Below, in pieces: positions 17,488 through 63,121 of a stretch of 64,000 bases of DNA. The stretch's first letter is position 1, and the number at the start of each line of letters is the position of its first letter. A model generated the notes under the pieces. The model ran no database searches and was not told the origin of the DNA. It saw only the letters and a program-made list of their open reading frames with translations. The position numbers were made by a program, and so were the translations under genes. The stretch is from a virus (Duplodnaviria; Caudoviricetes): positions 20,501-84,500 of the IMG/VR virus record IMGVR_UViG_3300020050_015887, one strand, 5' to 3'.

Positions 17488-17712
17488 TTAATTGTCTATT
17501 AACTTATTAACTGTGTTATTAATTTTTTCTTTCACCCATTCATCGTAATTTATAAAATAAATCATATCCGTTGGAACCATACTACTTATACTGATTTCAA
17601 TGTTCTGAAATTCAAATTCGGCTTTTATTTTTTCTGCATTAACAGGAGCCACCATAATATGAGGACGCATATTTGGTGTAGCAATTGGAATTATAATACA
17701 TTTATTCATCAA
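17488..17712 (-). CDS. C-terminal-tag family small protein
   Basis: Ends KINNTVNKLIDN. Confidence 0.65.
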   Translation of the reverse strand: MMNKCIIIPIATPNMRPHIMVAPVNAEKIKAEFEFQNIEISISSMVPTDMIYFINYDEWVKEKINNTVNKLIDN

Positions 17713-17902
17713 TTAACTTATTAACATTAGTGTTGATTGTATGTTTTAGCATTTCTTCTTCATACCATTCATTAAACACCGTCCAAAACCCGCTTTTTGG
17801 TGGTGTACTATAAACTACAATTTGACCAGCACTATTAGACATTGTTTCTTGTGTGATGGTTGTTCCACTATCTATAATATAATATGGTGGTTGTTGTTTC
17901 AT
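17702..17902 (-). CDS. C-terminal-tag family small protein
   Basis: Ends TINTNVNKLIDE. Confidence 0.65.
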   Translation of the reverse strand: MKQQPPYYIIDSGTTITQETMSNSAGQIVVYSTPPKSGFWTVFNEWYEEEMLKHTINTNVNKLIDE

Positions 17903-18198
17903 TTTTCTTCTTTAGTTTTTGTTCGATTATCGCAACCTTCATTTGTACATTTTCTAAAATAACGATTACCCAAAGATACCTTTTCCATATTTCCAACGTG
18001 ACAAACGTAACATATTTTTTTAGCAATCTTTTTAGCTGATACAACCGCTTCCTTTTCCTTATCGTCAAATAAAAACTTATTATATCCTTTGTTAAGTTTT
18101 CTAATGCTAGCAGTTAAACCTTTAATATGGTTTTTAAGTTCTCTATTTTCTCTTTCTAAACGGTCAATGATTTTATCTTCCCGTTCGTATTTTTTCAT
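17899..18198 (-). CDS. Coiled coil + Zn-ribbon protein
   Basis: CYVC...CTNEGC. Confidence 0.6.
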   Translation of the reverse strand: MKKYEREDKIIDRLERENRELKNHIKGLTASIRKLNKGYNKFLFDDKEKEAVVSAKKIAKKICYVCHVGNMEKVSLGNRYFRKCTNEGCDNRTKTKEEK

Positions 18199-18653
18199 AA
18201 GCCACTACTTCCAAACCCCTTGCTACCACGTTCACTACTCCATAATTCTTCTACTTCTACAATAGGCGGTGTCTCACATTTGTATACAATAAGCTGTGCA
18301 ATACGATCGCCTTTATTAACTTTGTATCCAAGTTTACCTAAACTAAACACATTGTCATATTGTGATTCATTATTAAGATTGTGTAACACTACCCCAATTT
18401 CACCAGTAAACTTAGCATCAATAACTCCAGCACCACTACGCAGCCCTTTCAAAGCCATACTGCTTCTATCACCAATAATACCCACATACCCATCTTCAAT
18501 GTGAATAGCTACACCGGTAGGGATTAAACGAGTTTCACCCAATGGAATAAACATATCTACTAAGCTATAAAGATCGACCCCTGCATCAAAACTGTGATTG
18601 CGTGTAGGCAATGTTGCATATTTATTAATTTTATAAACTTCAATTTTATTCAT
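18195..18653 (-). CDS. dut: Trimeric dUTPase
   Basis: AGVDL, DRSSMA, AGVIDAKFTGEI, RIAQL, ERGSKGFGSSG motifs. Confidence 0.95.
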   Translation of the reverse strand: MNKIEVYKINKYATLPTRNHSFDAGVDLYSLVDMFIPLGETRLIPTGVAIHIEDGYVGIIGDRSSMALKGLRSGAGVIDAKFTGEIGVVLHNLNNESQYDNVFSLGKLGYKVNKGDRIAQLIVYKCETPPIVEVEELWSSERGSKGFGSSGL

Positions 18654-18892
18654 GCTAACACCTTCTCAATATTTTCTTCTACTTCTTTAACAATGGCTGG
18701 TTCAAATCTATTACTTTGAAACCAATGCTCATCACCATAATACAAAAGTTTAAGACCAATTTTATACTCATCACCAGTTGAACTTATCTCATAAACAGGG
18801 TATACTTGACCTGGTTCTAAAAATAAACCTTCATGGTCGTGTTTACATCGAACATAAAATAAAACATCTTTATTGTTTTTTGTATCTGTCAT
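18650..18892 (-). CDS. C-terminal-tag family protein, SH3-like body
   Basis: VRC...LEPGQVYPV; ends VEENIEKVLA. Confidence 0.65.
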   Translation of the reverse strand: MTDTKNNKDVLFYVRCKHDHEGLFLEPGQVYPVYEISSTGDEYKIGLKLLYYGDEHWFQSNRFEPAIVKEVEENIEKVLA

Positions 18893-19226
18893 CTTGAGTT
18901 TTATCCCGAATAACGTTTTCTAGTGCCATTAATAAATTAGCTACGGCACAAGCCAAGTGATGCACTGGGCGACCTAGCATTTCCGAACTTTCTTTATCGT
19001 AATCTTCTCCAGCCATAAATTGAAAGATATGTCTTAATGCGCCACCAACGCAACGAGTTGCACTAAGTCCTTGCATGAAATTAAAAGCACCGTATTTGTT
19101 TTTACCAACAAGAAACGGATATCCAACTTCCAACATTGCTAAAGGGGGAAGATAAGCCATAGCTGGTTTTTTATCATCAAACTTCACACCTTTTTTATGC
19201 TTAGTTTTTTTGTTATTCTTTTTCAT
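18870..19226 (-). CDS. dATP/dGTP diphosphohydrolase-like protein (DUF5664 type)
   Basis: GVKFDDKKP...GKNKYGAFNF...ALRH...YDKES...HHLACAVANL. Confidence 0.8.
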   Translation of the reverse strand: MKKNNKKTKHKKGVKFDDKKPAMAYLPPLAMLEVGYPFLVGKNKYGAFNFMQGLSATRCVGGALRHIFQFMAGEDYDKESSEMLGRPVHHLACAVANLLMALENVIRDKTQDDRYKKQ

Positions 19227-19440
19227 TTAATAATCCTTCAATGCATTGTTCAACGTCGTGTTCCATTTTTACTTTAAAGCGTGTTTGTAACCAATCACCA
19301 AATGTGTGTTCAAGTTCGTAATAAGTATCACCAACAATGTTTACAGTGTAAATTTTATCAACAACTAATACACCTTTAGCACCATGGTCATTATTAATAC
19401 AAATGACTTCAAAGGGTGGTTTCATTTTACTTGTCGCCAA
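19213..19440 (-). CDS. C-terminal-tag family protein, SH3-like body
   Basis: VICI...LVVDKIYTV; ends VEQCIEGLLNEKE. Confidence 0.65.
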   Translation of the reverse strand: MATSKMKPPFEVICINNDHGAKGVLVVDKIYTVNIVGDTYYELEHTFGDWLQTRFKVKMEHDVEQCIEGLLNEKE

Positions 19441-20185
19441 GATTTACAATATTACGTTTTTTATTTGGTTCTTTTTTAGCGGCTTTACTGTAAGCTTTAC
19501 AATCCATACAACGGTATTTACGAAATACAGATCGTTCCGTTCTGATAATGCCACAAGATTTAAGATGTTCGCCGCCACAAACAGGACAATTATCCGGTTT
19601 ATCAAAATCATTAACATTGGGATGAGTTTTCATCCAAGGACGAATATGTTTATAAACACCTTCCAACAAGAACACATCGTGACGATTATAACGCTCCATA
19701 TCTTTCCAAGACTGTGCGTCGTTTTTCATACAACCAAGCCACATATCATAGCCAGGATGTTTTAATTTACTTCCAACTTTAAAATATTTAGCTAAAGCGT
19801 CTAATGAATTACTATTAAATCCAAAATATTTTCTAGCTTCAAGTTTGGTGTCTAAAATTTTAAATGGACTAGGTGGTGGAAGATTGTGTACTGCAATTCT
19901 AGCGTTTACTTTTTTAATATCAAAACTTTTTCCGTTATGAGCTAAAATAATATCGGCTTCATCAAACAACTTCCATAACTTTTCAACTAATTTTTTATCA
20001 TTTGATTTTTGATAATTAGCTTGACGAATAAATTTAATATCTTTATCACCAAACCATTTATATGAAGCGGATAAAATTTCCCATTCACGTTCTACGTGGT
20101 GAACATTGGTTTCCCAAATTTTCCAAGTATGACCAACAGTTGCAGAAGTTTCGATGTCAAAGATTAAAATTTTCTGTTTCAACAC
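19427..20185 (-). CDS. DEDD / RNase H-like 3'-5' exonuclease with C-terminal Zn ribbon
   Basis: IFDIETS, LAHNGKSFD, YNRHDV; CPVC...CMDC. Confidence 0.85.
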   Translation of the reverse strand: MLKQKILIFDIETSATVGHTWKIWETNVHHVEREWEILSASYKWFGDKDIKFIRQANYQKSNDKKLVEKLWKLFDEADIILAHNGKSFDIKKVNARIAVHNLPPPSPFKILDTKLEARKYFGFNSNSLDALAKYFKVGSKLKHPGYDMWLGCMKNDAQSWKDMERYNRHDVFLLEGVYKHIRPWMKTHPNVNDFDKPDNCPVCGGEHLKSCGIIRTERSVFRKYRCMDCKAYSKAAKKEPNKKRNIVNLGDK

Positions 20186-20195
20186 TATCCTTTAA

Positions 20196-20998: not shown

Positions 20999-21000
20999 AT

Positions 21001-21220: not shown

Positions 21221-23353
21221 TTACTCCTTACCGTAAGCCGTAGCTTCTACGGCACTGTTGTTGGACACTACTACATATTTACAATTCTGTACAAATTCAT
21301 CGATATTACGGGCGTTTAAATAAGTCATACCGCTACGTAATCCACCCTCAAAGTAGTTCATTAAATTTTCAACACTACCAGACACGGGAATTGTATAAGA
21401 TTCACCCTCTGGCGCTCTAAAACTAGCAGTTTTGTTTTGCACTTCATATGAAGACTGAGAAGCACTTCCCCTGTAAATCTTAGATAAAGGTGACATATCA
21501 GCAATGGGTGCAGCACTCTCAATCGTGCCAGCCATTAAACGACCCATAAAAACCCCTTTAACGCCTAATGCCAGGGCTTTTGATAAATCTCCAGGGGTAG
21601 ACATACCCCCGTCTTGAATGAGCGTATAACCCGTTCTAGCACAATCTAAAATACAAGAAACCGAAGGGGTTCCTACCCCGGCAACAATGCGAGTTTTGCA
21701 CGCGCTATTATGAACAATTGCATTATTGGCAATAAAACTGTGAGTAGGACAATCTACTTCAATGTCATATGTTTCAACAATTTCATCGATTGTTGTATAA
21801 TTGTTAATTCTGACAATTTGGTAATTCTCTGTTAATTGAGAATTCCAGGTTTTAAACGTTTTAGCACGAAAAGAAGGTTTAATATTTGCTAATGTAGCAT
21901 TTTTTAAACCACCAACTGTTGGTTTTCTATAAGACTGACTTGGAAAATAACCATATAATAAATAATTTATAATTGCAAACAATTCTATTAACTGTGGTGA
22001 TGTATTTGTTAATACTAATTTACCGTCGTCCTCGTGACCATCACTGTCAATTAAACCATCAAAAATTCCACGTAAATAGTTATTATTAATAACTAAATAA
22101 TTATTTGGTAAATGTTTTTCTTGTTTTTTACCAAAATTAATCATTAATCTTGCCAATGGTAAACAGTTAGCATTAACAACAATAACGTTATTGATCTTTT
22201 TTGTGGTTACGTTAATGTTAAATACTTCTTTTAATGCGGTAGTTAATTTATAAACAATGTCCGTTTCGGTTTTATTAAAATACCAAGAAACTTTTCCGCG
22301 AACAGAATTTTTATGAATATTAACTCTTGAGTGACCATCACCCAAAAATGTTCCAAAAATATATCCCAAATTATACGAAGATTTAATTTCATTATTATAT
22401 TCTTGAGCTTCAAAAGATTTTGAACGAATTGAAAATTCTTTTAAATTAATTAAAAAGTTTTCTTTTAAATCGAATTTAATATTTTTTGGCATTAACAATG
22501 TGCTTTTTTGGGTTTGATCAATTCTTTGCCATTTATATTTAGAATCCCCACTTTTGGTTGATTTATCTAAAACATTACCCAAACCCACGTCGTTAATATT
22601 TTTTATTGTAGAATAATCACCGATCCAATGTCGATGATCGGGCGTAACGATCGTTTCTTTGTAAAAATTATTGTTTTTATATTTAACTACCGATCTGAAC
22701 CCGGAGTTTTTTGTTCCAATAACCTTTACCGATTGGCCATTTTTATTAATGACAAAATCACCAACTTTTACATCTTCAATATTTTTATAGGTAGCATTTG
22801 ACATTAACACTCGCGTTCCAGCAGCAAAACAACCAGGCCCTACACCAATCTTCCAAGCCGTTGGAATTTTACCACTTTTTTCAACAAACGTGTTAATTTG
22901 TCCACTATTATCAAAATTACCAACAATAATATCTACGTCAAATAACATTTTTAGTGCTTTAAATTGGTTTAACACCTTCTCTTGAGCGCCGTTGGCCACG
23001 TCAATTACCAAAGTTTCAGCGCCAGCGTGAACTAAAGCCTCTGCGCGTTCAATCTCTGCGGTTCCTACACCTACAGACACCCAAGGCTTAACGTTATTAT
23101 AAATACCTTCTTTAAAAAGAACAATATTTTGGTCAATAGTACAAAAACGATGTACCGTAGCAATACCACCTTGTTTAATAACAGCAGCAGATAATTGCGG
23201 CGAATAAACACTATCCATATTAGAAGCGATAATAGGTACTTGTAATGTTGTGTTGCCAATTTTAACACTAGTGTCTACGTCGGAACGTGATGAAATAGTT
23301 GTAAAATTTGCTGGCACTAGGGAAATATCTTTAAATGTTAAATTTTTATTCAT
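21221..23353 (-). CDS. guaC: GMP reductase / IMPDH-family enzyme (CBS-less, about 335 aa after splicing), intein-containing
   Basis: PIIASNMD; IDVANG (GuaC-like); GVGPG|SACKTR catalytic loop; DGG; YRGSAS; LRSGMTY. IMPDH not excluded. Confidence 0.7.
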   Translation of the reverse strand: MNKNLTFKDISLVPANFTTISSRSDVDTSVKIGNTTLQVPIIASNMDSVYSPQLSAAVIKQGGIATVHRFCTIDQNIVLFKEGIYNNVKPWVSVGVGTAEIERAEALVHAGAETLVIDVANGAQEKVLNQFKALKMLFDVDIIVGNFDNSGQINTFVEKSGKIPTAWKIGVGPGCFAAGTRVLMSNATYKNIEDVKVGDFVINKNGQSVKVIGTKNSGFRSVVKYKNNNFYKETIVTPDHRHWIGDYSTIKNINDVGLGNVLDKSTKSGDSKYKWQRIDQTQKSTLLMPKNIKFDLKENFLINLKEFSIRSKSFEAQEYNNEIKSSYNLGYIFGTFLGDGHSRVNIHKNSVRGKVSWYFNKTETDIVYKLTTALKEVFNINVTTKKINNVIVVNANCLPLARLMINFGKKQEKHLPNNYLVINNNYLRGIFDGLIDSDGHEDDGKLVLTNTSPQLIELFAIINYLLYGYFPSQSYRKPTVGGLKNATLANIKPSFRAKTFKTWNSQLTENYQIVRINNYTTIDEIVETYDIEVDCPTHSFIANNAIVHNSACKTRIVAGVGTPSVSCILDCARTGYTLIQDGGMSTPGDLSKALALGVKGVFMGRLMAGTIESAAPIADMSPLSKIYRGSASQSSYEVQNKTASFRAPEGESYTIPVSGSVENLMNYFEGGLRSGMTYLNARNIDEFVQNCKYVVVSNNSAVEATAYGKE
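21707..22831 (-). mobile_element. Intein with LAGLIDADG homing endonuclease (375 aa)
   Basis: Starts CFAAGTRV, ends IVHN followed by Ser; YIFGTFLGDG and LRGIFDGLIDSDG motifs. Confidence 0.93.
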
Positions 23354-23405: not shown

Positions 23406-24032
23406 TTATACATAAACTTTTTCAATTACACCAGTTCGTGTTAAATCCGTAAAGTTATTAATTTGAAACAAATGATAATCGATAAGACGCGCCGTCTGAT
23501 TTATACTAAGCTGTTCAAATAAATCTGTATCTTTTCTAAATCCAAAAACAACTATAGCTGTCCCTGGACCATTTTGTTTTTTTTCATAAATACCTTGTAA
23601 GGTAACAACACACCATTTTGATGAATCGACTACATTTTGTACTCCAAAACAACATGCAACATAATTATAAATAGAAAAACTACTAAAAAATTCATCCGGT
23701 AATGGTCTGTCATCTGCAAATTTACTATCTGGGAATAAAACAATGTTCATTTCTTCCCAATAGGATTTGCTCTGTTGTATGGTGTCATACCACTCACCTT
23801 TGGGTTCTACTATTAAAACTTGAATATTTTGTTTATTGCAATACTCTATTAAATCGGTTTTTTCTTTACGTGTAACTACTAAAGGAACTAAATTATATTT
23901 AGCACAATAATTAAAATGCCATTGAATTAATGGTTGATTGGTTACAGGGTCAATCAATAATTCTTTTGATTGATTGGGTAACATACCCATCCGTGTACCT
24001 AAACCTGCTGCCGGAATAATTGCGCGTTTCAT
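23406..24032 (-). CDS. Sugar-phosphate nucleotidyltransferase (NTP_transferase fold)
   Basis: RAIIPAAGLGTRM...KELL signature; only 208 aa. Confidence 0.8.
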   Translation of the reverse strand: MKRAIIPAAGLGTRMGMLPNQSKELLIDPVTNQPLIQWHFNYCAKYNLVPLVVTRKEKTDLIEYCNKQNIQVLIVEPKGEWYDTIQQSKSYWEEMNIVLFPDSKFADDRPLPDEFFSSFSIYNYVACCFGVQNVVDSSKWCVVTLQGIYEKKQNGPGTAIVVFGFRKDTDLFEQLSINQTARLIDYHLFQINNFTDLTRTGVIEKVYV

Positions 24033-24241
24033 TTTAATAAATCCTCTATTAACACGTCTTGATAAAAGTTTAAATAATTTAAATATTCATCTTCTAATAA
24101 AACAGGTTTTTCTAAATCCAAATATTTGTCGGTTTTGAGTTTATTTTTTTGAAAATGTTCTTTCCATGTAAAATATAAAAGTGGATCAATTTTTCTATTT
24201 GTTGTTGAACCATCTTTGTTTAAGATAATCATTATAATCAT
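24029..24241 (-). CDS. C-terminal-tag family small protein
   Basis: Ends QDVLIEDLLK; paralogue of 24245-24448. Confidence 0.7.
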   Translation of the reverse strand: MIIMIILNKDGSTTNRKIDPLLYFTWKEHFQKNKLKTDKYLDLEKPVLLEDEYLNYLNFYQDVLIEDLLK

Positions 24242-24244
24242 ACG

Positions 24245-24448
24245 TTATTTTAATAACTCATTTATTAAAGCGTCTTGTGTATAATTCATAAAATCTGAAT
24301 ATTCGTAATCATATAAAATTGGAATGGGAGCATTTAACCACACGTCCCTTGTTTTATGTTTGGTGTAATATTTTTTCCATTGTTTGTACTTTTCAGGATT
24401 TACGTTTTCTATTTCTGTTAATCCATTTTTTAATACATGTATTTTCAT
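24245..24448 (-). CDS. C-terminal-tag family small protein
   Basis: Ends QDALINELLK. Confidence 0.7.
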   Translation of the reverse strand: MKIHVLKNGLTEIENVNPEKYKQWKKYYTKHKTRDVWLNAPIPILYDYEYSDFMNYTQDALINELLK

Positions 24449-25245
24449 ATTTTATTTGAATATTGTTGTAAAAATAATAACAAATCATTACTAGGTTTAA
24501 ATCGGTTTTGATGTTTTGATATTTTATTTAAATCTTCCGGTAAACCAGAATATTGAAAACTACACAATTTAACAATTTTATTATCTAGTTTATTATGTAT
24601 CCAACAAACTCCGTTTTGTTCAATAATGTCTCTTTCGTGTAAATTATAATAAGCAACATTATAAGAATAATCTCTTAAGATTGTAACATTATCAACAAAA
24701 AAAGGCAAACAGTTTAACCAACTCTGATCTAAAAAAATACCACTACCAGATACACAATGGGTTTTTTGTGTATTGTATTGCCATTTAAGAAACTCTATGG
24801 TTTCTTTTGTGTTGACCCACGCCACGGTGTCACTATTAATATGACCAGTTTGTATCACACCAATCTGATTAGGAAAATTTTGGTCTACTGGAAGTGGTGT
24901 AAGAGTGTGAGGTAATACAACGTTGTTATTATTGTCTAATAATTTATCTGGGTAACAAAAAAATTCTACATCTGCGCCAGTAAATACAACCTTTTCATAT
25001 CCTTGTTCAAAAGCATCTAACACAATTAACGGTCTAATGCTACAGATAATTTGCAAAGGGTCTTTGTATTGTGTTGAGTTATATAAATGATTAATGTTAA
25101 TTACTTCATCAAAAACGGGCGTTTCATACCCAATGTGGTATAGAATTTGTGTTGCGTGTGGGACATGTTTTTTTACACTATCAAATAACACCTTATAATT
25201 TGATAGATATAAATCAGAGGCAATACAGATAAATGCCGTTTTCAT
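24445..25245 (-). CDS. GT-A fold glycosyltransferase (GT8-like)
   Basis: TAFICIAS...VLFDSVKKH; degenerate DxD (GADVEF); FLDQSWLN; YNVAYYNL. Confidence 0.7.
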   Translation of the reverse strand: MKTAFICIASDLYLSNYKVLFDSVKKHVPHATQILYHIGYETPVFDEVININHLYNSTQYKDPLQIICSIRPLIVLDAFEQGYEKVVFTGADVEFFCYPDKLLDNNNNVVLPHTLTPLPVDQNFPNQIGVIQTGHINSDTVAWVNTKETIEFLKWQYNTQKTHCVSGSGIFLDQSWLNCLPFFVDNVTILRDYSYNVAYYNLHERDIIEQNGVCWIHNKLDNKIVKLCSFQYSGLPEDLNKISKHQNRFKPSNDLLLFLQQYSNKI

Positions 25246-25850
25246 TATTCAATGTTCCAGGTTGGTTTATTAATTTTTTCAAGCACTAATAGTATTTCGT
25301 ATTGTCCCCAAGCGTGTTGTTCTGGTGGTATAGAATAGTTATATCCTTTATCGCCGTCTTCTAATACTCGTACTCTATAACTATTAGGTTCAAATGCTTG
25401 TTCAATTTCTGCCAACAACGTGGCCGGAGAATAGAATACGCGATGATCTCCATTATATCTACTGGGTTTATTAAGTTTCTTTTCGTAAAGAAATTGGTGC
25501 GGCACTGCAATAATTAAATGACCGCCAATCTTAATAACCCGCATCCATTCCCGTAGGGTTTCAATACGATTATCAATGTGCTCTAAAACGTGACTACTGT
25601 AAACCGCGTCTTGAGTGCTATCACCAAACGGCAAATGTAACCCGTCATACCCTGGAGTATTTAAATTAATAACTTTAGTGTTTGGTAATACACCAACGCT
25701 ATCAATATAACCATCCGCACCTATCTCAACTGTTTCACCGGACATATATTTATCAAAAAAACCATTGTCAATTTTATCTTCATACGTGCGGCTAGTTTCT
25801 TCACCAACCCTACGTTTAAGTAATTCTTTTTTATTATTTTTATAACTCAT
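25245..25850 (-). CDS. Class I SAM-dependent methyltransferase (type 11-like)
   Basis: VEIGADG; DAVYSSHVLEH; RVIKIGGHLII. Confidence 0.8.
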   Translation of the reverse strand: MSYKNNKKELLKRRVGEETSRTYEDKIDNGFFDKYMSGETVEIGADGYIDSVGVLPNTKVINLNTPGYDGLHLPFGDSTQDAVYSSHVLEHIDNRIETLREWMRVIKIGGHLIIAVPHQFLYEKKLNKPSRYNGDHRVFYSPATLLAEIEQAFEPNSYRVRVLEDGDKGYNYSIPPEQHAWGQYEILLVLEKINKPTWNIE

Positions 25851-48422: not shown

Positions 48423-48579
48423 AATAATACTTTCTATTTACACAGTTTTTCTAATCTATCAATTTTTTCTTCTAAAACATCAACTCTTATTTTCTTTATT
48501 ATACCCCATTTTAATAAAAAGTCAATCTGTTTTATTAAAAGAGCATTATAACCAATTACGATTATAAACAATATAATTA

Positions 48580-51826: not shown

Positions 51827-51855
51827 ACAGTATCACAAATAATTTATTAAGTCAA
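51827..51855 (-). promoter_or_regulatory. sigma70 promoter
   Basis: TTGACT-17-TACTGT with TG extension; GGGGAG SD downstream. Confidence 0.5.
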
Positions 51856-55005: not shown

Positions 55006-55166
55006 AAATAATACTCCTATATTCAATATACCAGTTTAAAACTTTAGGTCAACACCTATATTATCGTTTGAGTACAAACTCATTATGTTTAAATGTAACA
55101 AAACCCATTGACTAAACTTTATTTATGTGTTAATATAATATACAGCTGTATTTTTAACATTTAGGT

Positions 55167-55394
55167 ATGAGTATGTATAACCATAAAGAAGAAAAAGAAA
55201 AGGTATACGCTGAATATAACCCTGAATTAATACCTTTACTTAATAACGTTTATAACATTGCTGTAAAACAAAACGATATAGGTGTTCAAAACCTCTGTAA
55301 AAAGTGTTCTAAACTCATTGCCACTCAAGGTTACATCTCAACTAATAAAGTTAATAAATTAATAAAACTCGCGGCTAATAGCTATAAAGCTTAA
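55167..55394 (+). CDS. Hypothetical protein
   Basis: 75 aa, divergent from the early operon. Confidence 0.5.
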   Translation: MSMYNHKEEKEKVYAEYNPELIPLLNNVYNIAVKQNDIGVQNLCKKCSKLIATQGYISTNKVNKLIKLAANSYKA

Positions 55395-55743
55395 CATCTT
55401 TATATCAAACGCTGTAAAACATATCTGGCGGCCTAAACCCATAGACTGAAAGCCCCTAGATCGTGAGAAGAGTAACCAAACTCTTAACGCGTTACAAGAC
55501 AACGATACCTTGTATCATAGCTCTCCCTAATCAAACTCTCTAATATATAGGCCCACCCTATATACTAAGGGTGATTTTTGTCTAAAAAACCTCTAGAAAT
55601 TAAATAAGTATACAACTGAATAAGATATAAACAACAATAATACAATAAAATTAATGTTAATAATATTAATTGTTTATAAATGAATTGATTAATCTTAACA
55701 ATATCATGTAGATAAGATAGATGGATATATGTGGAGTTAGGCC

Positions 55744-55759
55744 GGCAACACTCATACCA
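55744..55759 (-). promoter_or_regulatory. sigma54-type -24/-12 motif
   Basis: TGGTAT-GAGTG-TTGCC. Confidence 0.55.
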
Positions 55760-55776
55760 ATTCAATTAACCTATCA

Positions 55777-55789
55777 TATCAAATACTTG
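55777..55789 (+). promoter_or_regulatory. IHF-consensus site
   Basis: TATCAA-ATAC-TTG (WATCAANNNNTTR), about -45 to -55 from the adjacent sigma54 motif. Confidence 0.35.
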
Positions 55790-55983
55790 CCCTAATCTAA
55801 CAAATAACTTAACATCGAGCATGTAACGTAAGTGAAATGCGAGATAACTCAAGTATATTAAGCAATTATCAGAGTAGTTTGTTTTATAAATAGCTCTAGG
55901 ATAGATCCGTCTTCACGATCCTTCAGAATACCATAATTTTTGTATTGTTGTCAAGTAATTTATTTTATCAATTACTAGAATAT

Positions 55984-55999
55984 TGGTATAGATCTTGCA
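55984..55999 (+). promoter_or_regulatory. sigma54-type -24/-12 motif
   Basis: TGGTAT-AGATC-TTGCA. Confidence 0.55.
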
Positions 56000-56165
56000 A
56001 AGAGAATATACAAAGAGATCTTAAAGAAATAAAGATCTAAATAAAACAACAAATCTTCAGTATAGCATATTTATTAATAATAAGTCAAGTTAATATTTCT
56101 TAACTAATGGGTTAATAAAATAGGACAACATGTTTAATATATCTTAAACAAGCTGCCCTATTATT

Positions 56166-56181
56166 TGGCACAAGATTTGCA
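56166..56181 (+). promoter_or_regulatory. sigma54-type -24/-12 motif (full consensus)
   Basis: TGGCAC-AAGAT-TTGCA. Confidence 0.65.
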
Positions 56182-56500
56182 GAGAGGGATAATTTTACGG
56201 GCTATGGATATACAGGTATAATAGCATTAATACGCAAACCTTGTTCCTTACACTTACGCCTAATGCTACTCATTCCTTTTAGGGTTGAGGTTACTTTACC
56301 AGTAGCAACATACCACTTACCGTCACGCTGAATCATCTTACTATAATGTACAATATACATTTATCCTACCTCATCATCCGTTAAAGACTTAATAAACTTT
56401 TCAGCTTTATCTTTAGTGTTAAAGGTATCTAATACAATACCTTTATGTAACACTTGGAATATATACCCTACTTGGGTGTATACAGGTCTAATGCTATACA

Positions 56501-56734
56501 TTAATCTACCCATTCTTTATCAATTTCGATTGTTTGAGTTTGATTAGACAAACTGTCAATAGCATCCTCATCTAAATACTTGGCACCATTCTTGCAAAAC
56601 GATGCGACGTATTCGCCTTCTGTATTATGATATACAGTGCAACTAGGCTCTTCTGCTAAGGCTGCAACACTCATTAACATGCTGATAAACATTGCAACTA
56701 GGGTAAAGGTTAATAACTTTTCTTCTCTATTCAT
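56501..56734 (-). CDS. Small secreted acidic protein
   Basis: Signal peptide ending AALA; GAGGA SD. Confidence 0.55.
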   Translation of the reverse strand: MNREEKLLTFTLVAMFISMLMSVAALAEEPSCTVYHNTEGEYVASFCKNGAKYLDEDAIDSLSNQTQTIEIDKEWVD

Positions 56735-56823
56735 ATGATCCTCTATATCTATATTATAACAATCTAAGGATTAAAGCAACACCAATCACCAACAATAAAT
56801 AATAATAGTTGTTCATGCTTGCC

Positions 56824-57204
56824 CTATAGTGTGATAAAGTACAGCCCGTCAACCTTGCTGTAGTTCTTCTCGGGTTGTTTATCCGTTGGGGTCCACTTAC
56901 CAACAGACTTAATAGATCCGTCTTTAAATACCAATTCAGCATGTCCGTCTGAATGTACTCTTAGATAGCACTCTTGATCAAACGTATCTGCCAATAGCTT
57001 GATCACGCTATTATAAGTGTTCTCTGCAACAATATACAGAGAGACTTCAGTTGATCCCTCATAGTTGCCCTCTACTAATTTAAAAGGCAGCTTATGCTTG
57101 TTAAGCAGCTGAATTAGTTCTTCAGTGCGGTGAAAATTCTCTCGCACACTAAGGGTGCTAAGTTCTGCACTTAATACAAAAGCTTGTTTTGTCACATTGA
57201 ACAT
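56824..57204 (-). CDS. SAM lyase (T3 SAMase-like) anti-restriction protein
   Basis: VLSAELS.L....N..R; GNYEGSTE.S; LADTFDQECYL; AELV; VGKW match the T3 SAMase motif order as recalled. Confidence 0.75.
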   Translation of the reverse strand: MFNVTKQAFVLSAELSTLSVRENFHRTEELIQLLNKHKLPFKLVEGNYEGSTEVSLYIVAENTYNSVIKLLADTFDQECYLRVHSDGHAELVFKDGSIKSVGKWTPTDKQPEKNYSKVDGLYFITL

Positions 57205-57314
57205 TGTTAACTCCTATAGCTATAATAGCACATGCTATATTAATTGCAACTATTATTTAAACTCTCTATAATGCCCTACAAACGTTCTTTGAATGTTAAC
57301 CTATAGGATGCTAT

Positions 57315-57575
57315 TCAATCCCATTGGATCTCGAAATAAGAGCCATCCTCAAGGCTACCATAGCCGATATAATGTTTACCGTCTGATACAGCCTTGCAAA
57401 CGTCGCTATATACCTTAGCACCATCTACTAGTGTTGTACATAATACCTTGAACCCATCATAGTCGTATAAGTCTGAATGCTCGCATCCCTCTACATCCGT
57501 ATACGCATGTACGAATGTCTTAAATTCCACTAGGCTATAATCTACTCCGAATACTTTATTATCTAGGATTTGCAT
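57315..57575 (-). CDS. Acidic hypothetical early protein
   Basis: GAGG SD; TTGCTA-17-TATATT promoter at 57595-57623. Confidence 0.55.
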   Translation of the reverse strand: MQILDNKVFGVDYSLVEFKTFVHAYTDVEGCEHSDLYDYDGFKVLCTTLVDGAKVYSDVCKAVSDGKHYIGYGSLEDGSYFEIQWD

Positions 57576-57603
57576 TGAATACCTCTCAATTATTAATATA
57601 CCA

Positions 57604-57729
57604 CTACTTGCTTAGCTTAGCAACTACATTCTCAGCCTGTTGCTTTGTAGCGTAAGGACCTGCTACCACTAAGTATGTTCTGCTATTCTGAACGATCCAC
57701 CCTACTTTAGATTGAATGATGTTGTACAT
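57604..57729 (-). CDS. 41-aa early protein
   Basis: AAGGAG SD before ATG 57729; GPYATKQQAE. Confidence 0.55.
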   Translation of the reverse strand: MYNIIQSKVGWIVQNSRTYLVVAGPYATKQQAENVVAKLSK

Positions 57730-57753
57730 ATATTCTCCTTTGATATATATTAA

Positions 57754-57769
57754 TGCATTCGGTGTGCCA
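57754..57769 (-). promoter_or_regulatory. sigma54-type motif (near consensus)
   Basis: TGGCAC-ACCGA-ATGCA. Confidence 0.45.
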
Positions 57770-57797
57770 ATGTATCTTAGCCTCAAAGTATAGCCCC

Positions 57798-57813
57798 TGC
57801 AATATTCGTGCCT
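57798..57813 (-). promoter_or_regulatory. sigma54-type motif
   Basis: AGGCAC-GAATA-TTGCA. Confidence 0.5.
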
Positions 57814-57935
57814 GTATAGAATGTGTACAGATCTTAGGGCTTGACAATGTATGTGTTGGATTCTATTGGAGATTGTGTGGTGTGTAAGGATTGGTCGGGT
57901 GTATAGGAGATGGGGGGGTACCCATATTTAAAAGT

Positions 57936-57951
57936 TGGCATAGACCTTGCC
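57936..57951 (+). promoter_or_regulatory. sigma54-type motif upstream of the HNH gene
   Basis: TGGCAT-AGACC-TTGCC. Confidence 0.55.
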
Positions 57952-58012
57952 TCTGCGACCCATGCACCAAATATATTTTTAACATACCGTCATAAATTTA
58001 ACATTTAACTAT

Positions 58013-58975
58013 ATGAAAGAAAAAAACCTCCACTCATTAGTTGAAATTTGTCTTGAATGCGGAACTCAATGTGCCCTACATTCTTACACTACGGTATTTA
58101 GTAGTGCTTTACCAAGTATTCAAAAATCAATTCAAGATAAAAAAAAGAAACAGTTAGATTTAATAAAACGTAATGAAACATTAAGATTAAAACAATTTAA
58201 TAAAAAGAAACAACTAGTTAATAATATTGTATATGATAAAATTAAATGTCATTATTGTAATGAAATAAAATTAAGACTGACAGTTAAATCGAGGGATTAC
58301 ATTGATGAAACAGGTAGAGATTGGGTAGGAAAAAAATGTCCTAGTTGTAGAAGTATTGAATATCAAAAAAGAAAAGAAAATAGATTCAAAAATAAAAATT
58401 GTAACTATTGTAATAGTAACTTTACTGGTTTATACAGTAAAAAATATTGTAATGTTGGATGTCGTCGTTCAAATGAAAATATAAAAAGAACTATTAGAAA
58501 ATGTATTACTTGTCAAACCCTATTAGGTAATACAACCCGTTTAAAATGCTCTGCCTGCTATGTTCCTAAAAAAACATATCCTAGTAAGTCTAAGCCACCA
58601 AAAGCTGCGTATAACCAAACGTGCGTTAAATGCGGGGTTGTTTTTTTGGTCGCCCGGAAAAAGAAGTATTGCTCTCAAAAATGTAATAAAAAAGCAAACA
58701 CTAATCCAGCATTACATAAGATGTATAAAAAGTTACGTAAGAGAGCGGTAAAAAAAGCTAAACCTAAGTGGTGTAAATGGAAAGAAATTGTTGAGGTTTA
58801 TGTTAATTGTCCAGAAGGAATGGAAGTAGATCACATTCATCCATTAAATCATCCTGACGTATGTGGGCTTCATGTCCCTTGGAATTTACAATATTTATCT
58901 AAAGAAGATAATAATAAGAAATCTAATAGTTTTGACGGTACGTATGAAAATTTAGGTTGGAAAAAGAAATCATGA
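58013..58975 (+). CDS. HNH endonuclease with multiple Zn-finger motifs
   Basis: Seven CxxC and two CxxxC; VDHIHPL..CGLHVPWNLQYL...NNKKSN. Confidence 0.85.
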   Translation: MKEKNLHSLVEICLECGTQCALHSYTTVFSSALPSIQKSIQDKKKKQLDLIKRNETLRLKQFNKKKQLVNNIVYDKIKCHYCNEIKLRLTVKSRDYIDETGRDWVGKKCPSCRSIEYQKRKENRFKNKNCNYCNSNFTGLYSKKYCNVGCRRSNENIKRTIRKCITCQTLLGNTTRLKCSACYVPKKTYPSKSKPPKAAYNQTCVKCGVVFLVARKKKYCSQKCNKKANTNPALHKMYKKLRKRAVKKAKPKWCKWKEIVEVYVNCPEGMEVDHIHPLNHPDVCGLHVPWNLQYLSKEDNNKKSNSFDGTYENLGWKKKS

Positions 58976-59203
58976 TAGTAACTTCTCAACACTATTATTA
59001 ATTTTAACAAGTTTAACAGTTTCTAATACTTCAGGCCAAGTATATTTACCAATACCCCAATCACACCCAGCTTCATAATGTTCGAGTATATGTTCTTTAG
59101 ATGCTTCTTTGTATAATATTTTATGAACTTCGTAAGCTTCATCTATAGTTAATTCTATGTCTCCTATTAAACCTCGATGCTCTGATATAAATTTAATATT
59201 CAT
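58970..59203 (-). CDS. C-terminal-tag family small protein
   Basis: Ends INNSVEKLLS. Confidence 0.7.
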   Translation of the reverse strand: MNIKFISEHRGLIGDIELTIDEAYEVHKILYKEASKEHILEHYEAGCDWGIGKYTWPEVLETVKLVKINNSVEKLLS

Positions 59204-59493
59204 TTTAATAACCCATCAACATAATCAGTTGTGTGTTTGTCGTTTATTTCTTTTTTTAATGTTAGGGCTAGGTCGTATTCTTCTTTTAATAACCACCACA
59301 AAATATGTGTGTCGAACAATTCTCCGTATTCTTCAGATTCAATTTTATTTTTAAATTCTTTTACGCTCATGGTTTTATACTGGCTGATCCAAATATATTG
59401 GTCAGCAATATGTTTAATAATGTACAAAGCTTCTTCAAGGTTTTTCACCATAAACTTTGTGTCTTTATTCTCTGTACAAAAATAAAAAGTCAT
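59200..59493 (-). CDS. C-terminal-tag family small protein
   Basis: Ends TTDYVDGLLK. Confidence 0.7.
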   Translation of the reverse strand: MTFYFCTENKDTKFMVKNLEEALYIIKHIADQYIWISQYKTMSVKEFKNKIESEEYGELFDTHILWWLLKEEYDLALTLKKEINDKHTTDYVDGLLK

Positions 59494-59741
59494 TTTAATA
59501 ACCCGTCCACTGCCCTATCGACATTTAAATTGGATACATATTTTTCAATACTATCGCTATCTTGTGTGTTTGTTGTATATACACTATGATCATACTGTAT
59601 AGAACGCATGTGGGCCTCTATCCTCTCTTGTTCGAGAAAAGGAAATACTATTTGTATCATCTCAACATAATCTTCTTGGTTCATATAAACAACTTTTCTT
59701 ATTGTGTTGTTACTTTCGTATAAAATGATAGTGATGTTCAT
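59490..59741 (-). CDS. C-terminal-tag family small protein
   Basis: Ends VDRAVDGLLK. Confidence 0.7.
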   Translation of the reverse strand: MNITIILYESNNTIRKVVYMNQEDYVEMIQIVFPFLEQERIEAHMRSIQYDHSVYTTNTQDSDSIEKYVSNLNVDRAVDGLLK

Positions 59742-59992
59742 TTTAATATTTCCTCTATAGACCTATCAATTTTTTCATTTAATATCAAACCTTTAAGTTT
59801 ATCAACATATGTCGTATCTATTGATATGCTATTGTGTGAACGCAAAATTTGAATAACGGTTTCTTTATAAAAATTTGTTGGAATATTATACACTTGATTT
59901 ATTAAATGTTGTATTTGTTCTTCAGTAAAATATCCAATTGTTTTTACTTCGTCTGTTTTATTATCGTAATATGTCCAAGGATATAATTTCAT
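59738..59992 (-). CDS. C-terminal-tag family small protein
   Basis: Ends IDRSIEEILK. Confidence 0.7.
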   Translation of the reverse strand: MKLYPWTYYDNKTDEVKTIGYFTEEQIQHLINQVYNIPTNFYKETVIQILRSHNSISIDTTYVDKLKGLILNEKIDRSIEEILK

Positions 59993-60258
59993 TTTAACAC
60001 TTGCTCTATAGAATTGTTGATGTTTTCTTGTTTTATTTTCACTACTACCATTAATCTTTTATAAGAACTTTTATCGTCTGTGTGTATTGTAAAACTTCCC
60101 GTTTTTAAATCTTCTTTCCAAAAAGATTTATAATCTTCAATATTTCCCCATCTACCATCGTTTAAATTAAACACATATTGATATTCTTCTTCTGTAATAA
60201 ACGTTCTAAGCACTTCATTTTCGTTTTTATCATTTACAATTATTTTTAATAAATTCAT
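59989..60258 (-). CDS. C-terminal-tag family small protein
   Basis: Ends INNSIEQVLK. Confidence 0.7.
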   Translation of the reverse strand: MNLLKIIVNDKNENEVLRTFITEEEYQYVFNLNDGRWGNIEDYKSFWKEDLKTGSFTIHTDDKSSYKRLMVVVKIKQENINNSIEQVLK

Positions 60259-60707
60259 AAAGTGTCAATATATTTATCAACTTGAGTAGACATACGCATT
60301 TGTTTTAAAGCATCCTCAACAATTTTAATTTCTCTTTGAAAAATAGAACATTGTGTTTTTTCAGACATTCCTCTGGCCCACTCATCGCTTTCTTTTATCA
60401 ACGGCAGAATATTTAAATATTCTTGTTCTGTGCATCCAAAAATAAACGTCCCACTCATACTAACAAAACGATGTGTATATTTCATAACATATTTATAATT
60501 TTCCGGGGAGAGGTGAAACCACTGTTCTCCATTAACCCTTTCACCCACAGCATTTCTTTTTATCATATCTTTTAATATTATTGGGGTAGTTTTTTTGTAT
60601 ATGTCGTTAGAAAATTTTAAACGTTTTAAAATACTTAATATTTCATTAATATCAATAGGTTCAAATCGTTCAGATTTACACACATCATTTACAAAATAAA
60701 ATTTCAT
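60255..60707 (-). CDS. C-terminal-tag family protein (150 aa)
   Basis: Ends VDKYIDTL. Confidence 0.65.
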   Translation of the reverse strand: MKFYFVNDVCKSERFEPIDINEILSILKRLKFSNDIYKKTTPIILKDMIKRNAVGERVNGEQWFHLSPENYKYVMKYTHRFVSMSGTFIFGCTEQEYLNILPLIKESDEWARGMSEKTQCSIFQREIKIVEDALKQMRMSTQVDKYIDTL

Positions 60708-61075
60708 AACTTATCTACGTAATTATTAACCTTTTTATTAATCATGAAAGTTTTAAATGTTTTATAATCATGTTCAGACATTGTAATAATCTGAAACGTC
60801 CTTAAAGGCTCTAGGCTGTCTTTTCGACCGGGTATGTAGTACAACCCATCCACCCTACCAGGAAAATGCATTTCAAAGGCATTTAAATCGTTTATATGGA
60901 CAATTTTAACGTTGATGCCATAGCCCGTATGCAAGTCTATAACACAATATCCAAATAATAGCAATGATCGTTCTACAATTAGGAATAAAAAGCCTAGGGG
61001 TATAATTATAACTGCGGCAAATAATAATAAAATTAAATCTGCAAACACCATTCCTACATGTTTTAAGTAATTCAT
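60704..61075 (-). CDS. C-terminal-tag family protein with N-terminal TM
   Basis: Ends INKKVNNYVDKL. Confidence 0.6.
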   Translation of the reverse strand: MNYLKHVGMVFADLILLLFAAVIIIPLGFLFLIVERSLLLFGYCVIDLHTGYGINVKIVHINDLNAFEMHFPGRVDGLYYIPGRKDSLEPLRTFQIITMSEHDYKTFKTFMINKKVNNYVDKL

Positions 61076-61081
61076 TAAGCT

Positions 61082-61110
61082 ATTATATAATAAAATGAGG
61101 TTGAAATCAA
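61082..61110 (-). promoter_or_regulatory. sigma70 promoter, leaderless geometry, heading the leftward tag array
   Basis: TTGATT-17-TATAAT-6 nt-ATG. Confidence 0.6.
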
Positions 61111-61119
61111 ATAAAAAAT

Positions 61120-61371
61120 ATGTTATTATTAGGTATGATTTTTAAAACTACACATGGAAAAATTATCGGGGAAGTGCCAGACGGTGTTGGAATGGAAATA
61201 ATGGAAAGTTGGAGACAGGAATTTTATCCTGGTACTGTGCCTATTGGTTATGCTCCTGAAAAACATTTTTCTCAACCATGTTCTATGGTTTTTATAAAAA
61301 AAGAAGTTGACGAATATTATCTTAAATTAAAAATTGACAAAACTGTTGATATTATTATAGAAACATTATAG
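61120..61371 (+). CDS. C-terminal-tag family small protein
   Basis: Ends IDKTVDIIIETL. Confidence 0.65.
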   Translation: MLLLGMIFKTTHGKIIGEVPDGVGMEIMESWRQEFYPGTVPIGYAPEKHFSQPCSMVFIKKEVDEYYLKLKIDKTVDIIIETL

Positions 61372-61372
61372 T

Positions 61373-61663
61373 ATGACATTAAAAGAAAACGAAATTATTC
61401 TAACTTATTATGAAGATAATCCTTTGCAAGCAACGGAAGACACGGAAAGACATGTAATTGATATTATTAATCAAGAACAATTAACAACATTTATCGATAT
61501 ATTATGTAAAACAATATGGATAGGTGATAATTTTTCTACAAAACATATTGACCAAGTTATGAATCACATGGCAATAAGTTTAAATGACAAAGAACTTGAT
61601 GTGTATGAAAAATGGCAATTGTCAAAACAAATTGATAAAAATATTAACAACATACTAAAATAA
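61373..61663 (+). CDS. C-terminal-tag family small protein
   Basis: Ends IDKNINNILK. Confidence 0.7.
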   Translation: MTLKENEIILTYYEDNPLQATEDTERHVIDIINQEQLTTFIDILCKTIWIGDNFSTKHIDQVMNHMAISLNDKELDVYEKWQLSKQIDKNINNILK

Positions 61664-61664
61664 T

Positions 61665-61946
61665 ATGATAAAAATTTATTTAATAGATAAATCAGATGAT
61701 TTAACCTTTGTTTGTTCTTTATCTAAAACAAAAGCTATGGCATTATATCATGTGTGGTTGAAAAAACATGTAAATAGAGAAGCTTCATTTGAAACAATAG
61801 ACTATTTTGAAGCAACAACTAGTTTAAACAATCATTTATCTTTTCATGAAGATTATAAATCTACAATAGAAGAATGGCTTATTGCACAAAAAAAGATGAA
61901 AATAAATAAGAAAGTTAACAAAATAGTAGATAAATTATTGGAGTAG
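61665..61946 (+). CDS. C-terminal-tag family small protein
   Basis: Ends VNKIVDKLLE. Confidence 0.7.
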   Translation: MIKIYLIDKSDDLTFVCSLSKTKAMALYHVWLKKHVNREASFETIDYFEATTSLNNHLSFHEDYKSTIEEWLIAQKKMKINKKVNKIVDKLLE

Positions 61947-61948
61947 TT

Positions 61949-62206
61949 ATGGTGGACATTTACGCTGGTCATAAATTAAAAATACGAGTAAGTAATGCTA
62001 AATGCATAGAATTATATAAATTTTGGTATAGAAAATATAAGGGAGTAAAACGAATACCTAAATACGAATGGGTGCGTTCTGAAATTTATGAAGAAATCAA
62101 ACACGGGCAGTCTATATATGATATTGTTTTTGAAGATATTATTGACGAGTGGATTCATCAACAAAAGATGAGTAAAATTAATAGGATAGTAGATAAGCTA
62201 ATATAA
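61949..62206 (+). CDS. C-terminal-tag family small protein
   Basis: Ends INRIVDKLI. Confidence 0.7.
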   Translation: MVDIYAGHKLKIRVSNAKCIELYKFWYRKYKGVKRIPKYEWVRSEIYEEIKHGQSIYDIVFEDIIDEWIHQQKMSKINRIVDKLI

Positions 62207-62227
62207 TAGTAACATTGCGGGCTACTG

Positions 62228-62392
62228 ATGAAAAAGAAAAAACCACAACAACAATACAAAATTCCTTTAACTAACGTTTTGGCTAAGGCGTTAGAAGAAT
62301 TACATAAAAACGAATTAAAACGTAAAGAATTAAAAAAGAATAAAGAAAAAATGCAACGCATTAAAAATAATGTTGAAGATATTTTAAAATAA
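62228..62392 (+). CDS. 54-aa basic tag-family protein (not in ORF track)
   Basis: MKKKKPQQQY...MQRIKNNVEDILK. Confidence 0.6.
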   Translation: MKKKKPQQQYKIPLTNVLAKALEELHKNELKRKELKKNKEKMQRIKNNVEDILK

Positions 62393-62393
62393 T

Positions 62394-62636
62394 ATGGAAG
62401 TGATCATTACATTTGAACAAGATCCTACGGTACAGAAGAGAATGGACTTAGGAGAGTTTCAGCAATATGCTGAATATGTGTATAAGACACATAATAAGAA
62501 GAACTTTACAATGGTGTATAGAGTACATGAGGCTGTATTTGTTTGTAAGTTTAATAGTGCAGAGTTATTTGAGGCTACGTATATTAAGTTTAAAGAAAAT
62601 CAGTTTCATAAAAATTTAGAAAAGTTACTTAAGTAG
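62394..62636 (+). CDS. C-terminal-tag family small protein
   Basis: Ends FHKNLEKLLK. Confidence 0.7.
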   Translation: MEVIITFEQDPTVQKRMDLGEFQQYAEYVYKTHNKKNFTMVYRVHEAVFVCKFNSAELFEATYIKFKENQFHKNLEKLLK

Positions 62637-62861
62637 TTTATCTATTTGGTTGTTGAATTTAAGACCTCTAAGTTTTAACACTTCGTCAATAGCTTCTACC
62701 CAAACCTCAGCCCATATATAATGTTCGTTTGCTGGAATAAATGATGCTGGGGTAAAATTATTATTACCGGGAAGAAGTTTAACCCATAGTTTAAACTCAT
62801 TGTCGTTTAAAAACACTGTTTGTTCAATGTCATTTTTTCGTTTAATAATAAGTTTGGTCAT
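62625..62861 (-). CDS. C-terminal-tag family small protein
   Basis: Ends FNNQIDKLLK. Confidence 0.7.
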   Translation of the reverse strand: MTKLIIKRKNDIEQTVFLNDNEFKLWVKLLPGNNNFTPASFIPANEHYIWAEVWVEAIDEVLKLRGLKFNNQIDKLLK

Positions 62862-63121
62862 TTTAAAACGTCTTCTATTGTGTTAATAATTTGTTGTTCT
62901 TTGTTATATTTTATTAAATCTAAAATAGCAGCGTGATAAATACTTCCAATAGATATAAGAATTGGAGATTCTATATTTCTTTCAAGATCTCTTTCATAAT
63001 CTTCTTTTTTAAAATAATAATAATAATATTTATTTATTTTTATAAACGTATCGTAATCTTCTTGTCCATAAATGAGAAAACATTCTTGTTTGTTGCCTGC
63101 TTGTGCAATAATTCTTAGCAT
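62858..63121 (-). CDS. C-terminal-tag family small protein
   Basis: Ends IINTIEDVLK. Confidence 0.7.
   Translation of the reverse strand: MLRIIAQAGNKQECFLIYGQEDYDTFIKINKYYYYYFKKEDYERDLERNIESPILISIGSIYHAAILDLIKYNKEQQIINTIEDVLK

Follow-up and report, generated by a model that had tools for sequence, protein, structure and literature searches.

A genome-specific C-terminal helix on some 35 unlike small proteins of an uncultured phage resembles an undescribed address label

About a quarter of the genes of an uncultured phage (Caudoviricetes; virus record IMGVR_UViG_3300020050_015887) are ORFans, that is, open reading frames (ORFs) without a family or a known function, whose products share one C-terminal ending, an amphipathic helix here called the tag. 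This shared ending, first noticed in a preliminary description of the same DNA, is real and lies far above chance. It is anchored at the C-terminus, selection on the protein maintains it, and related phages each have a genome-wide version of their own. The tag thus looks like an address label of an undescribed kind, for which two proteins of the phage itself are a candidate reader: a MoxR-type AAA+ ATPase and a protein in which a metallopeptidase is fused to a von Willebrand factor A (VWA)-like domain. The window, meaning the whole stretch of 64,000 nucleotides that was analysed, covers bases 20501-84500 of the 84.5-kb record and has a guanine-cytosine (GC) content of 33%; positions given below are those of the window unless stated otherwise.

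All ORFs of the window were translated and their tails were right-aligned. Between 17488 and 63121, 35-38 small ORFs of 45-150 amino acids (aa) have a stretch within their last 9-17 residues that fits h-x-x-x-[IVL]-[DEN]-x-[LIV]-[LI], where h is a hydrophobic residue, mostly with one more residue before the stop; about 37 had been claimed originally, and shuffled proteins give about one. The fuller consensus is K-x-x-x-[IVF]-[ND]-x-x-[IV]-[DE]-K-[LV]-L-(K/A), a helix of about 12-14 residues, and the ending h-x-x-x-[IV]-[DE]-K-[LV]-L-(K/A) is found on 29-38 of about 130 small ORFs. One further tagged ORF lies beyond the window, at 716-994 of the genome. A strict nine-residue pattern occurs in the tails of 30 of 166 greedily called ORFs, compared with a mean of 0.85 and a maximum of 4 in 500 whole-protein shuffles, with 2 of 253 tails of shadow ORFs, and with 8 of 20,583 internal positions. 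Its anchoring is equally evident: 29 of 45 strict-pattern occurrences lie at most five residues from the stop, and 17 lie exactly one residue before it. Some matches were set aside as chance, namely that in 32319-32795, which forms the last part of a Dam methylase domain, and those in 12-383 and 25847-26821, which are on conserved proteins.

Is the ending a property of the proteins or of the DNA that encodes them? At the key columns of the tag, codon positions 1 and 2 carry 1.4-1.7 bits of information and third positions 0.03-0.5 bits. Pairs of tags with the same residue use the same codon in 1043 cases, when 982 are expected from the codon usage of the genome (ratio 1.06). In the related phage G001, whose family-B DNA polymerase (polB) is 57% identical and whose GC content is 46%, the corresponding ratio is 1.29 overall, with the two Leu columns at expectation. 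Since codon sharing is at expectation and third positions are free, the tag is no DNA repeat, product of recent gene conversion or recombination linker. The early proposal of selection at the protein level, made on a handful of peptides, is borne out by these figures.

A by-product of nucleotide signals, be it a Shine-Dalgarno (SD) sequence with spacer and ATGA overlap, a promoter, or a recombination linker at cassette boundaries, is very improbable as an explanation and is contradicted except at the last residue. It can appeal to the ATGA overlap with the next start in 13 of 36 tagged ORFs, to the SD-like AAGGTG or GAGG that some tags hold about 6-9 nt ahead of the next ATG, and to terminal Lys. 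Because the latter is enriched in the tag-free relative G008 too (33 vs 10.7 expected), the final Lys of the tag is partly an effect of the AAATGA overlap and of coupling; the rest of the tag is not. Besides the codon data, three observations contradict a nucleotide origin. The tag is found in 21 of 81 coupled and in 8 of 49 uncoupled small ORFs of this genome, the uncoupled ones including operon ends and a convergent pair, so that it is independent of downstream starts, as first supposed. A similar frequency in other AT-rich phages, a simple account that had been considered from the beginning, is not found: six related AT-rich phages have no motif tail, despite 29-78 tightly coupled junctions each. 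Finally, the version of the tag in G001 (its dialect) persists at 46% GC. Two other candidates were rejected. An arrest peptide for termination-reinitiation does not fit, as tags stand at operon ends too and dialects differ although ribosomes do not; nor does a membrane-targeting helix, as the G001 dialect is net negative and has conserved acidic residues.

The bodies that precede the tag had been called dissimilar, and to BLAST and hidden Markov model (HMM) searches they are. After removal of the last 16 residues, only one pair is BLAST-similar, the neighbours 24029-24241 (70 aa) and 24245-24448 (67 aa). An HMM of G001 bodies gives no signal in this genome, and BLAST finds no orthologue of a tagged protein in G001, as against 35 core proteins with one. 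Among the 71 tagged proteins of the two phages, 69 have no credible match to Pfam, PHROG or NCBIfam profiles; the two real matches are Dam, with its chance tag, and a DUF6745 fragment in G001. Weak matches of single members were to Herpes_BLRF2 (4.8e-05) and DUF4327 (0.0041). A word-indexed search with the alignment of the tails found nothing beyond proteins of this genome itself and two nearly identical orthologues from metagenomes, the ESM Atlas gave no usable match for a tagged protein, and a profile of the 71 proteins, which is too weak to measure spread, had two matches among 1.84 billion representatives, both of them G001's own. The metagenome orthologue P0006 of the tagged ORF 59200-59493 (97 aa) covers residues 15-97, and these 83 residues are identical but for three changes, all in the last five residues, inside the tag. 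By eye, however, loose body plans can be discerned that qualify the dissimilarity: about 15 ORFs have an M-K-h-h-h-h hairpin with an N-capped helix, and others have an M-x-x-K-V-G-D barrel, which also occurs in G001, G040 and G043.

Structure prediction adds to this picture. The AlphaFold2 (AF2) model of 51847-52050 (67 aa) shows a five-strand SH3-like barrel and then, at residues 53-66, a helix of 14 residues (predicted local distance difference test, pLDDT, 83); its best Foldseek matches, with an E-value of 0.027 and template-modelling scores of 0.6-0.66 to SH3, PWWP and KOW chains, represent generic fold resemblance only. The model of 62625-62861 (78 aa) is a beta-hairpin with three helices (pLDDT 66). 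As modelled, the tag is carried by at least two predicted body folds. In G001, moreover, ORF L002:34-486, which touches the contig start, has a DUF6745 fragment (profile positions 9-88 of 206) and then the G001 tag.

These results bear on the main rival explanation, a possible one, in which the helix is an intrinsic structural element packed on the body, the tagged proteins are fast-diverging paralogue families expanded in each lineage, no common reader exists, and the link to the MoxR/VWA pair described below reflects a shared accessory module or ancestry. The loose body plans speak for it, as do the helix that abuts the barrel with good confidence in the AF2 model and the wide occurrence of SH3-like barrels with a capping helix at the C-terminus. 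On the other hand, the same tag is shared by at least two predicted folds, and in G001 the DUF6745 fragment bears a tag as well. The polar and presumably exposed N, D/E and K residues are as conserved as the hydrophobic ones and shift together genome-wide (E-K here, K-D in G001), and random-level codon sharing is hard to square with tails that share a recent ancestor or underwent gene conversion.

The shift just mentioned is part of a series of dialects. In G001, 33-34 small ORFs end in T-K-x-x-E-[IV]-x-x-E-[IV]-K-D-L-L-(K/A/S), with the same hydrophobic spacing as in this phage and with the charged pair swapped. The endings are K-L-x-x-K-[LM]-K-[DK]-[IV]-F-[NS]-[DE] in G024, [AL]-T-[EDP]-L-x-[KE]-A-L-[LI] in G040, [ST]-[SP]-L-x-x-E-L-[LIF] in G054, H-P-[IT]-L-V-K-L-W-R-L-D in G043, R-F-T-L-D-L-E in G018 and [IV]-K-I-L-E-Y-[KE] in L048; G030 and G019 have Trp-containing tails. 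In G006 (loci L026-L029) the dialect amounts to a final Leu, found in about 57 of 130 small ORFs (mostly of 40-69 aa; 12 expected, p 8e-25), which is a minimal C-terminal signature in a genome with the MoxR/VWA pair. An acidic residue is present in all dialects except the Trp-type and terminal-Leu ones. With the tails removed, hhalign pairs the bodies of G040 with those of G043 (probability 88.8%, E 2.5e-6), and the tags of the two phages differ. The homology of the bodies suits the notion of diverging paralogue families with a structural helix; the unlike tags on homologous bodies do not, and they indicate that the tag follows the genome, not the body. Comparison of G001 bodies with those of G040 or G043 by hhalign was weak (31% and 11%).

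If the tag follows the genome, which other genes go with it? MoxR and the VWA protein are the only proteins of this genome that are in G001 and G006 yet missing from six other polB relatives. The MoxR-type ATPase (30701-31756, minus strand) matches AAA_5 in Pfam (E 7.7e-8) and bpMoxR. Its partner, the candidate reader by its Pfam domains and phyletic pattern (29364-30566, minus strand), consists of DUF2201_N, which carries the HExxH motif of the metallopeptidase, with the VWA-like DUF2201 fused on. HExxH and the metal ion-dependent adhesion site (MIDAS; D-x-S-G-S, T, D) are invariant in 25 relatives, and no solved structure is related to the pair by sequence beyond a weak ClpB AAA match. Tagged ORFs lie near or directly beside the pair in this phage (G000), G001, G018, G040 and G043. 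Here, 31812-32060 (82 aa) is directly upstream of MoxR, and 28450-28668 (72 aa) is about 700 nt downstream of the VWA gene with a 164-aa ORF between.

The association was measured in 36 polB relatives, 10 with the pair and 26 (at least 85% complete) without. A MoxR-type gene is present in 10 genomes, an HExxH-VWA gene lies near it in all 10, and neither gene is in any other genome. For tail-specific sharing, a BLOSUM score of at least 18, at least three identical hydrophobic positions and at least two partners were required, and tails were compared with internal segments; an earlier BLOSUM threshold of 14 was too lax on whole genomes and was replaced by stricter statistics. Counts for tails and internal segments, respectively, are 29 and 0 in this phage, 33 and 0 in G001, 31 and 0 in G040, 17 and 0 in G024, 15 and 6 in G043, 8 and 0 in G054, 7 and 1 in G018, 10 and 7 in G030, 2 and 0 in G019, and 0 and 3 in G006, all of which have the pair. 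Tail-specific families are thus found in 7 (strict) to 9 (lenient) of the 10 genomes with the pair and in none of the 26 without it (raw Fisher test, p = 1.4e-5 or 1e-7, respectively), and strongly anchored hydrophobic tail residues (p < 1e-9) are confined to pair-bearing genomes. The few positives among pair-less genomes are whole-length paralogues. In G005 and G022 (loci L035-L038 and L177-L181), for example, families of whole-length paralogues or repeat proteins, equally similar internally, mimic tail sharing. On the polB tree the pair needs six changes, four of them forced by well-supported branches. The link between tag and pair is consistent in direction and statistically unproven.

From these data we tentatively favour the view that the tag is a modular docking helix read by one co-evolving partner, which would most plausibly be the phage's own MoxR/peptidase-VWA machine. 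The C-terminal helix would dock on this machine with its hydrophobic face (positions -9, -5, -2 and -1) in a groove, while the acidic residue of the tag might reach the MIDAS metal; the ATPase and the peptidase could then remodel, clip or remove the tagged protein. In this way the phage would handle about 35 unlike early proteins as one class. A fuller version, more doubtful, is a phage protein-addressing system: MoxR and the zinc-peptidase-VWA protein would recognise a genome-specific helix on 30-35 hypervariable early proteins and activate, clip or clear them, and tag and reader would co-evolve into mutually exclusive dialects. Of the partners listed when docking was first suggested, the MoxR/VWA pair has gained the support of co-occurrence, and the modularity of the helix on at least two predicted folds agrees with docking; the structural helix nevertheless stands as a rival.

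Several points weigh against docking on the pair. The helix in the AF2 model of 51847-52050 comes directly after the barrel with pLDDT above 80, which is compatible with a free helix and equally with one that is an integral part of the structure. The phylogeny offers only 4-6 independent contrasts; the tag goes in the same direction as the pair in 1.7-3 of 4 and never in the opposite one (sign test, p 0.25-0.5), contrasts too few to prove the MoxR link, as the structural explanation would have it. For 17 of the MoxR-negative genomes, the verdict covers only the 20 kb that surround polB. About 22 more distant pair loci on larger contigs have no tag family within 10 kb, so that the pair is not sufficient for tags and can work without them. 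G019 and G006 hold the pair but have weak or different tails, Trp-containing or with a bare terminal Leu. Finally, a MoxR/metallopeptidase-vWA pair in group 2.2 jumbo phages has been proposed to act as a virion-assembly chaperone (Iyer et al., PMC7824862). The gene-pair architecture is the same as here, and large viral contigs yielded relatives with about 40% identity; unlike the situation in this phage, the paper on jumbo phages mentions no tagged protein family (PMC7824862).

Could the reader belong to the host? The tag might be read by one of the host's proteins, for instance an adaptor of a protease, a hub, or a subunit of a polymerase or clamp; in that case dialects would track hosts, and the MoxR/VWA pair would have nothing to do with the tag. 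The docking of C-terminal peptides on host machines is well known from degrons, adaptor tails and clamp-binding motifs, and the phages with dialects range from 27 to 46% GC and probably have different hosts. A host reader is unlikely all the same, as it leaves unexplained why pair-less relatives, likely with similar hosts, have no tag family. The tag also does not match the clamp-binding or PIP-box consensus (Q-x-x-[LIM]-x-x-[FY]-[FY], Q-L-[SD]-L-F): it has no Gln, its end is aliphatic and not aromatic, and position -8 is not conserved in G001. A further explanation, that the helix serves oligomerisation and assembles the small proteins into homo-oligomers or mixed bundles, is improbable. The i, i+4, i+7, i+8 hydrophobic spacing with flanking charges would suit a short coiled-coil or bundle contact, and genome-wide uniformity would allow pairing among family members; yet about 1.5 heptads are short for a stable coiled coil, self-association needs no common sequence on unrelated bodies, and the strict link with MoxR/VWA would be unexplained.

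Close parallels to a helix read by the MoxR/VWA pair are known from bacteria. In vWA-MoxR-linked systems, small fast-diverging proteins have a conserved C-terminal peptide and serve as substrates that a zincin peptidase cuts (Kaur et al., 2020, PMC7159879); these peptide-processing modules come in FxSxx-COOH, RxD and acidic types (Haft and Basu, 2011, as cited in Kaur et al., 2020, PMC7159879). As in FxSxx-COOH-type systems, the phage has its genes for a zincin-type metallopeptidase, a vWA protein and a MoxR ATPase in one place, and small, rapidly diverging proteins are conserved only in a C-terminal peptide. Unlike them, the present system is in a phage and not among bacterial conflict systems, its peptidase is fused to the VWA protein, and it has at least 30 scattered tagged genes per genome instead of one precursor. 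The phage tag is an amphipathic helix, and none of the dialects fits the FxSxx, RxD, acidic-run or FtsH-associated type. Radical-SAM/SPASM, VMAP, TPR and AP-ATPase partners were found in none of the 20 larger window proteins scanned with Pfam. The precursors of FxSxx-COOH-type systems are cut by the peptidase, which sets the C-terminal peptide free; the phage tags might be cleaved in a similar way.

The pair also has the layout of NorQ-NorD, RavA-ViaA and CbbQ-CbbO, in which an AAA_5 ATPase adjoins a VWA protein with a MIDAS. Those machines, however, have no peptidase domain and serve one dedicated client complex. The C-terminus of NorD docks on the ring of NorQ, a MoxR protein (PMC13036017), and the docking C-terminus is there the VWA partner's own, not that of a client family.

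Other parallels concern the tag itself. ssrA-type tags and adaptor docking tails are C-terminal handles for bacterial AAA+ proteases. In the proposed scheme the phage tag would likewise give an AAA+ machine a hold on dissimilar proteins, through one short peptide that they all have at their very C-terminus. It differs in sequence, it is gene-encoded on about 35 genes and not added, and its reader would be phage-encoded. The capsid-targeting signal of the internal proteins of T4 is N-terminal, and the cargo-loading peptide of encapsulins is a Gly/Ser-Leu motif; in both, unlike proteins bear a short terminal peptide for one destination, as may also be true of the tag. The capsid or scaffold interior was among the partners suggested in the preliminary description, and nothing supports this idea: unlike the genes for such cargo, the tagged genes sit among replication and early genes, outside the structural module, and nothing ties them to head genes. 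Our search of the literature turned up no description of shared C-terminal tags on phage ORFans, and the family is in none of the libraries searched (Pfam, PHROGs, NCBIfam), in keeping with the first impression that it was unrecognised.

The genome as a whole has no close relative among GenBank phages, megablast with the tagged block gave no match, and scans of the window for tRNA and Rfam families found none. Public sequencing runs with this DNA are aquatic and wastewater metagenomes, in which it has small shares, and no RNA run is listed. Four of seven polB relatives from genome assemblies (loci L187-L193) are binned in metagenome-assembled genomes of Bacteroidota, a weak hint at the host phylum. 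A plus-strand block with tail and structural genes extends to about 13 kb of the window. It is followed by a long minus-strand block of replication and metabolism genes, which includes the MoxR/VWA pair and in which the Pfam scan finds a split family-B polymerase, a DnaB-primase, ERF, a PD-(D/E)XK nuclease, a peptide deformylase (44243-44872, minus) and an S8 subtilase (47013-47735, minus). The subtilase is also in G001 and G006 and, as it is present in the tag-free G004 too, it does not track the tag. The same block contains an intein-bearing IMPDH-like gene and a nucleoside diphosphate (NDP)-heptose-like cluster. The former (21221-23353, minus) is a 710-aa IMPDH/GMP-reductase-like gene split by a Hint and LAGLIDADG intein (Pfam); the latter (23406-28453, minus) comprises a nucleoside triphosphate transferase, a methyltransferase, a GT9 glycosyltransferase, a PfkB kinase and an SIS isomerase. 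A gene-poor zone at 55000-58000 parts the long block from a third block of small genes (58970-63121).

Between 17488 and 63121, the tagged ORFs are on the minus strand except for six named below, and they were assigned by the fit of their tails. In the long block, 17488-17712 (74 aa) is the last gene of its run, with no coupled start downstream, and is followed by 17702-17902 (66 aa), 18650-18892 (80 aa, with a barrel-type body) and 19213-19440 (75 aa, with four extra residues after the tag). Tagged mini-ORFs are wedged among the genes of the heptose cluster, among them the BLAST-similar neighbours at 24029 and 24245; 27633-27884 encodes 83 aa. Beyond the ORF next to MoxR lie 32062-32322 (86 aa), 32792-33049 (85 aa), 33399-33680 (93 aa, with Cys at one hydrophobic position) and 33690-33956 (88 aa). 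The polymerase (33946-36400, minus) is made of two ORFs in all relatives, and only in this genome does a tagged ORF, 34617-34889 (90 aa), lie in the junction of the halves; in G001 the two halves are contiguous, with a tagged ORF behind them. Farther on are 44010-44246 (78 aa, with an acidic extension), 46778-47038 (86 aa), 48434-48571 (45 aa, with Cys at one hydrophobic position), 49878-50225 (115 aa), 50222-50482 (86 aa) and the modelled barrel protein at 51847. Two members with weak tags, judged from the tail, are doubtful: 36375-36629 (84 aa, seven extra residues) and 45232-45489 (85 aa).

The third block consists of 15 consecutive tagged ORFs, the first of which is 58970-59203 (77 aa). 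After 59200-59493, the orthologue of P0006, come 59490-59741 (83 aa), 59738-59992 (84 aa) and 59989-60258 (89 aa), and then two with variant tags, likewise judged from the tail, 60255-60707 (150 aa) and 60704-61075 (123 aa). The six on the plus strand are 61120-61371 (83 aa), 61373-61663 (96 aa), 61665-61946 (93 aa), 61949-62206 (85 aa), 62228-62392 (54 aa) and 62394-62636 (80 aa), the last of which is convergent with 62625-62861 and has no downstream start. The block is completed by 62858-63121 (87 aa), again on the minus strand.

What is new here is a series of dialects within one phage group, together with a presence/absence test against the MoxR/VWA pair; in several related phages, too, ORFans bear common handles, in other versions. 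Should the helix have no more than a structural role, the result would still be a set of large and rapidly evolving families of small proteins that are missing from current databases. If the handle is an address label, it would give experimental entry to dozens of unknown early proteins at once, provide the first client set for the poorly understood MoxR/peptidase-VWA machines of phages, and offer a simple sequence rule for spotting such systems in metagenomes. Bacterial viruses would then run tag-and-reader logistics of their own, with lineage-specific codes.

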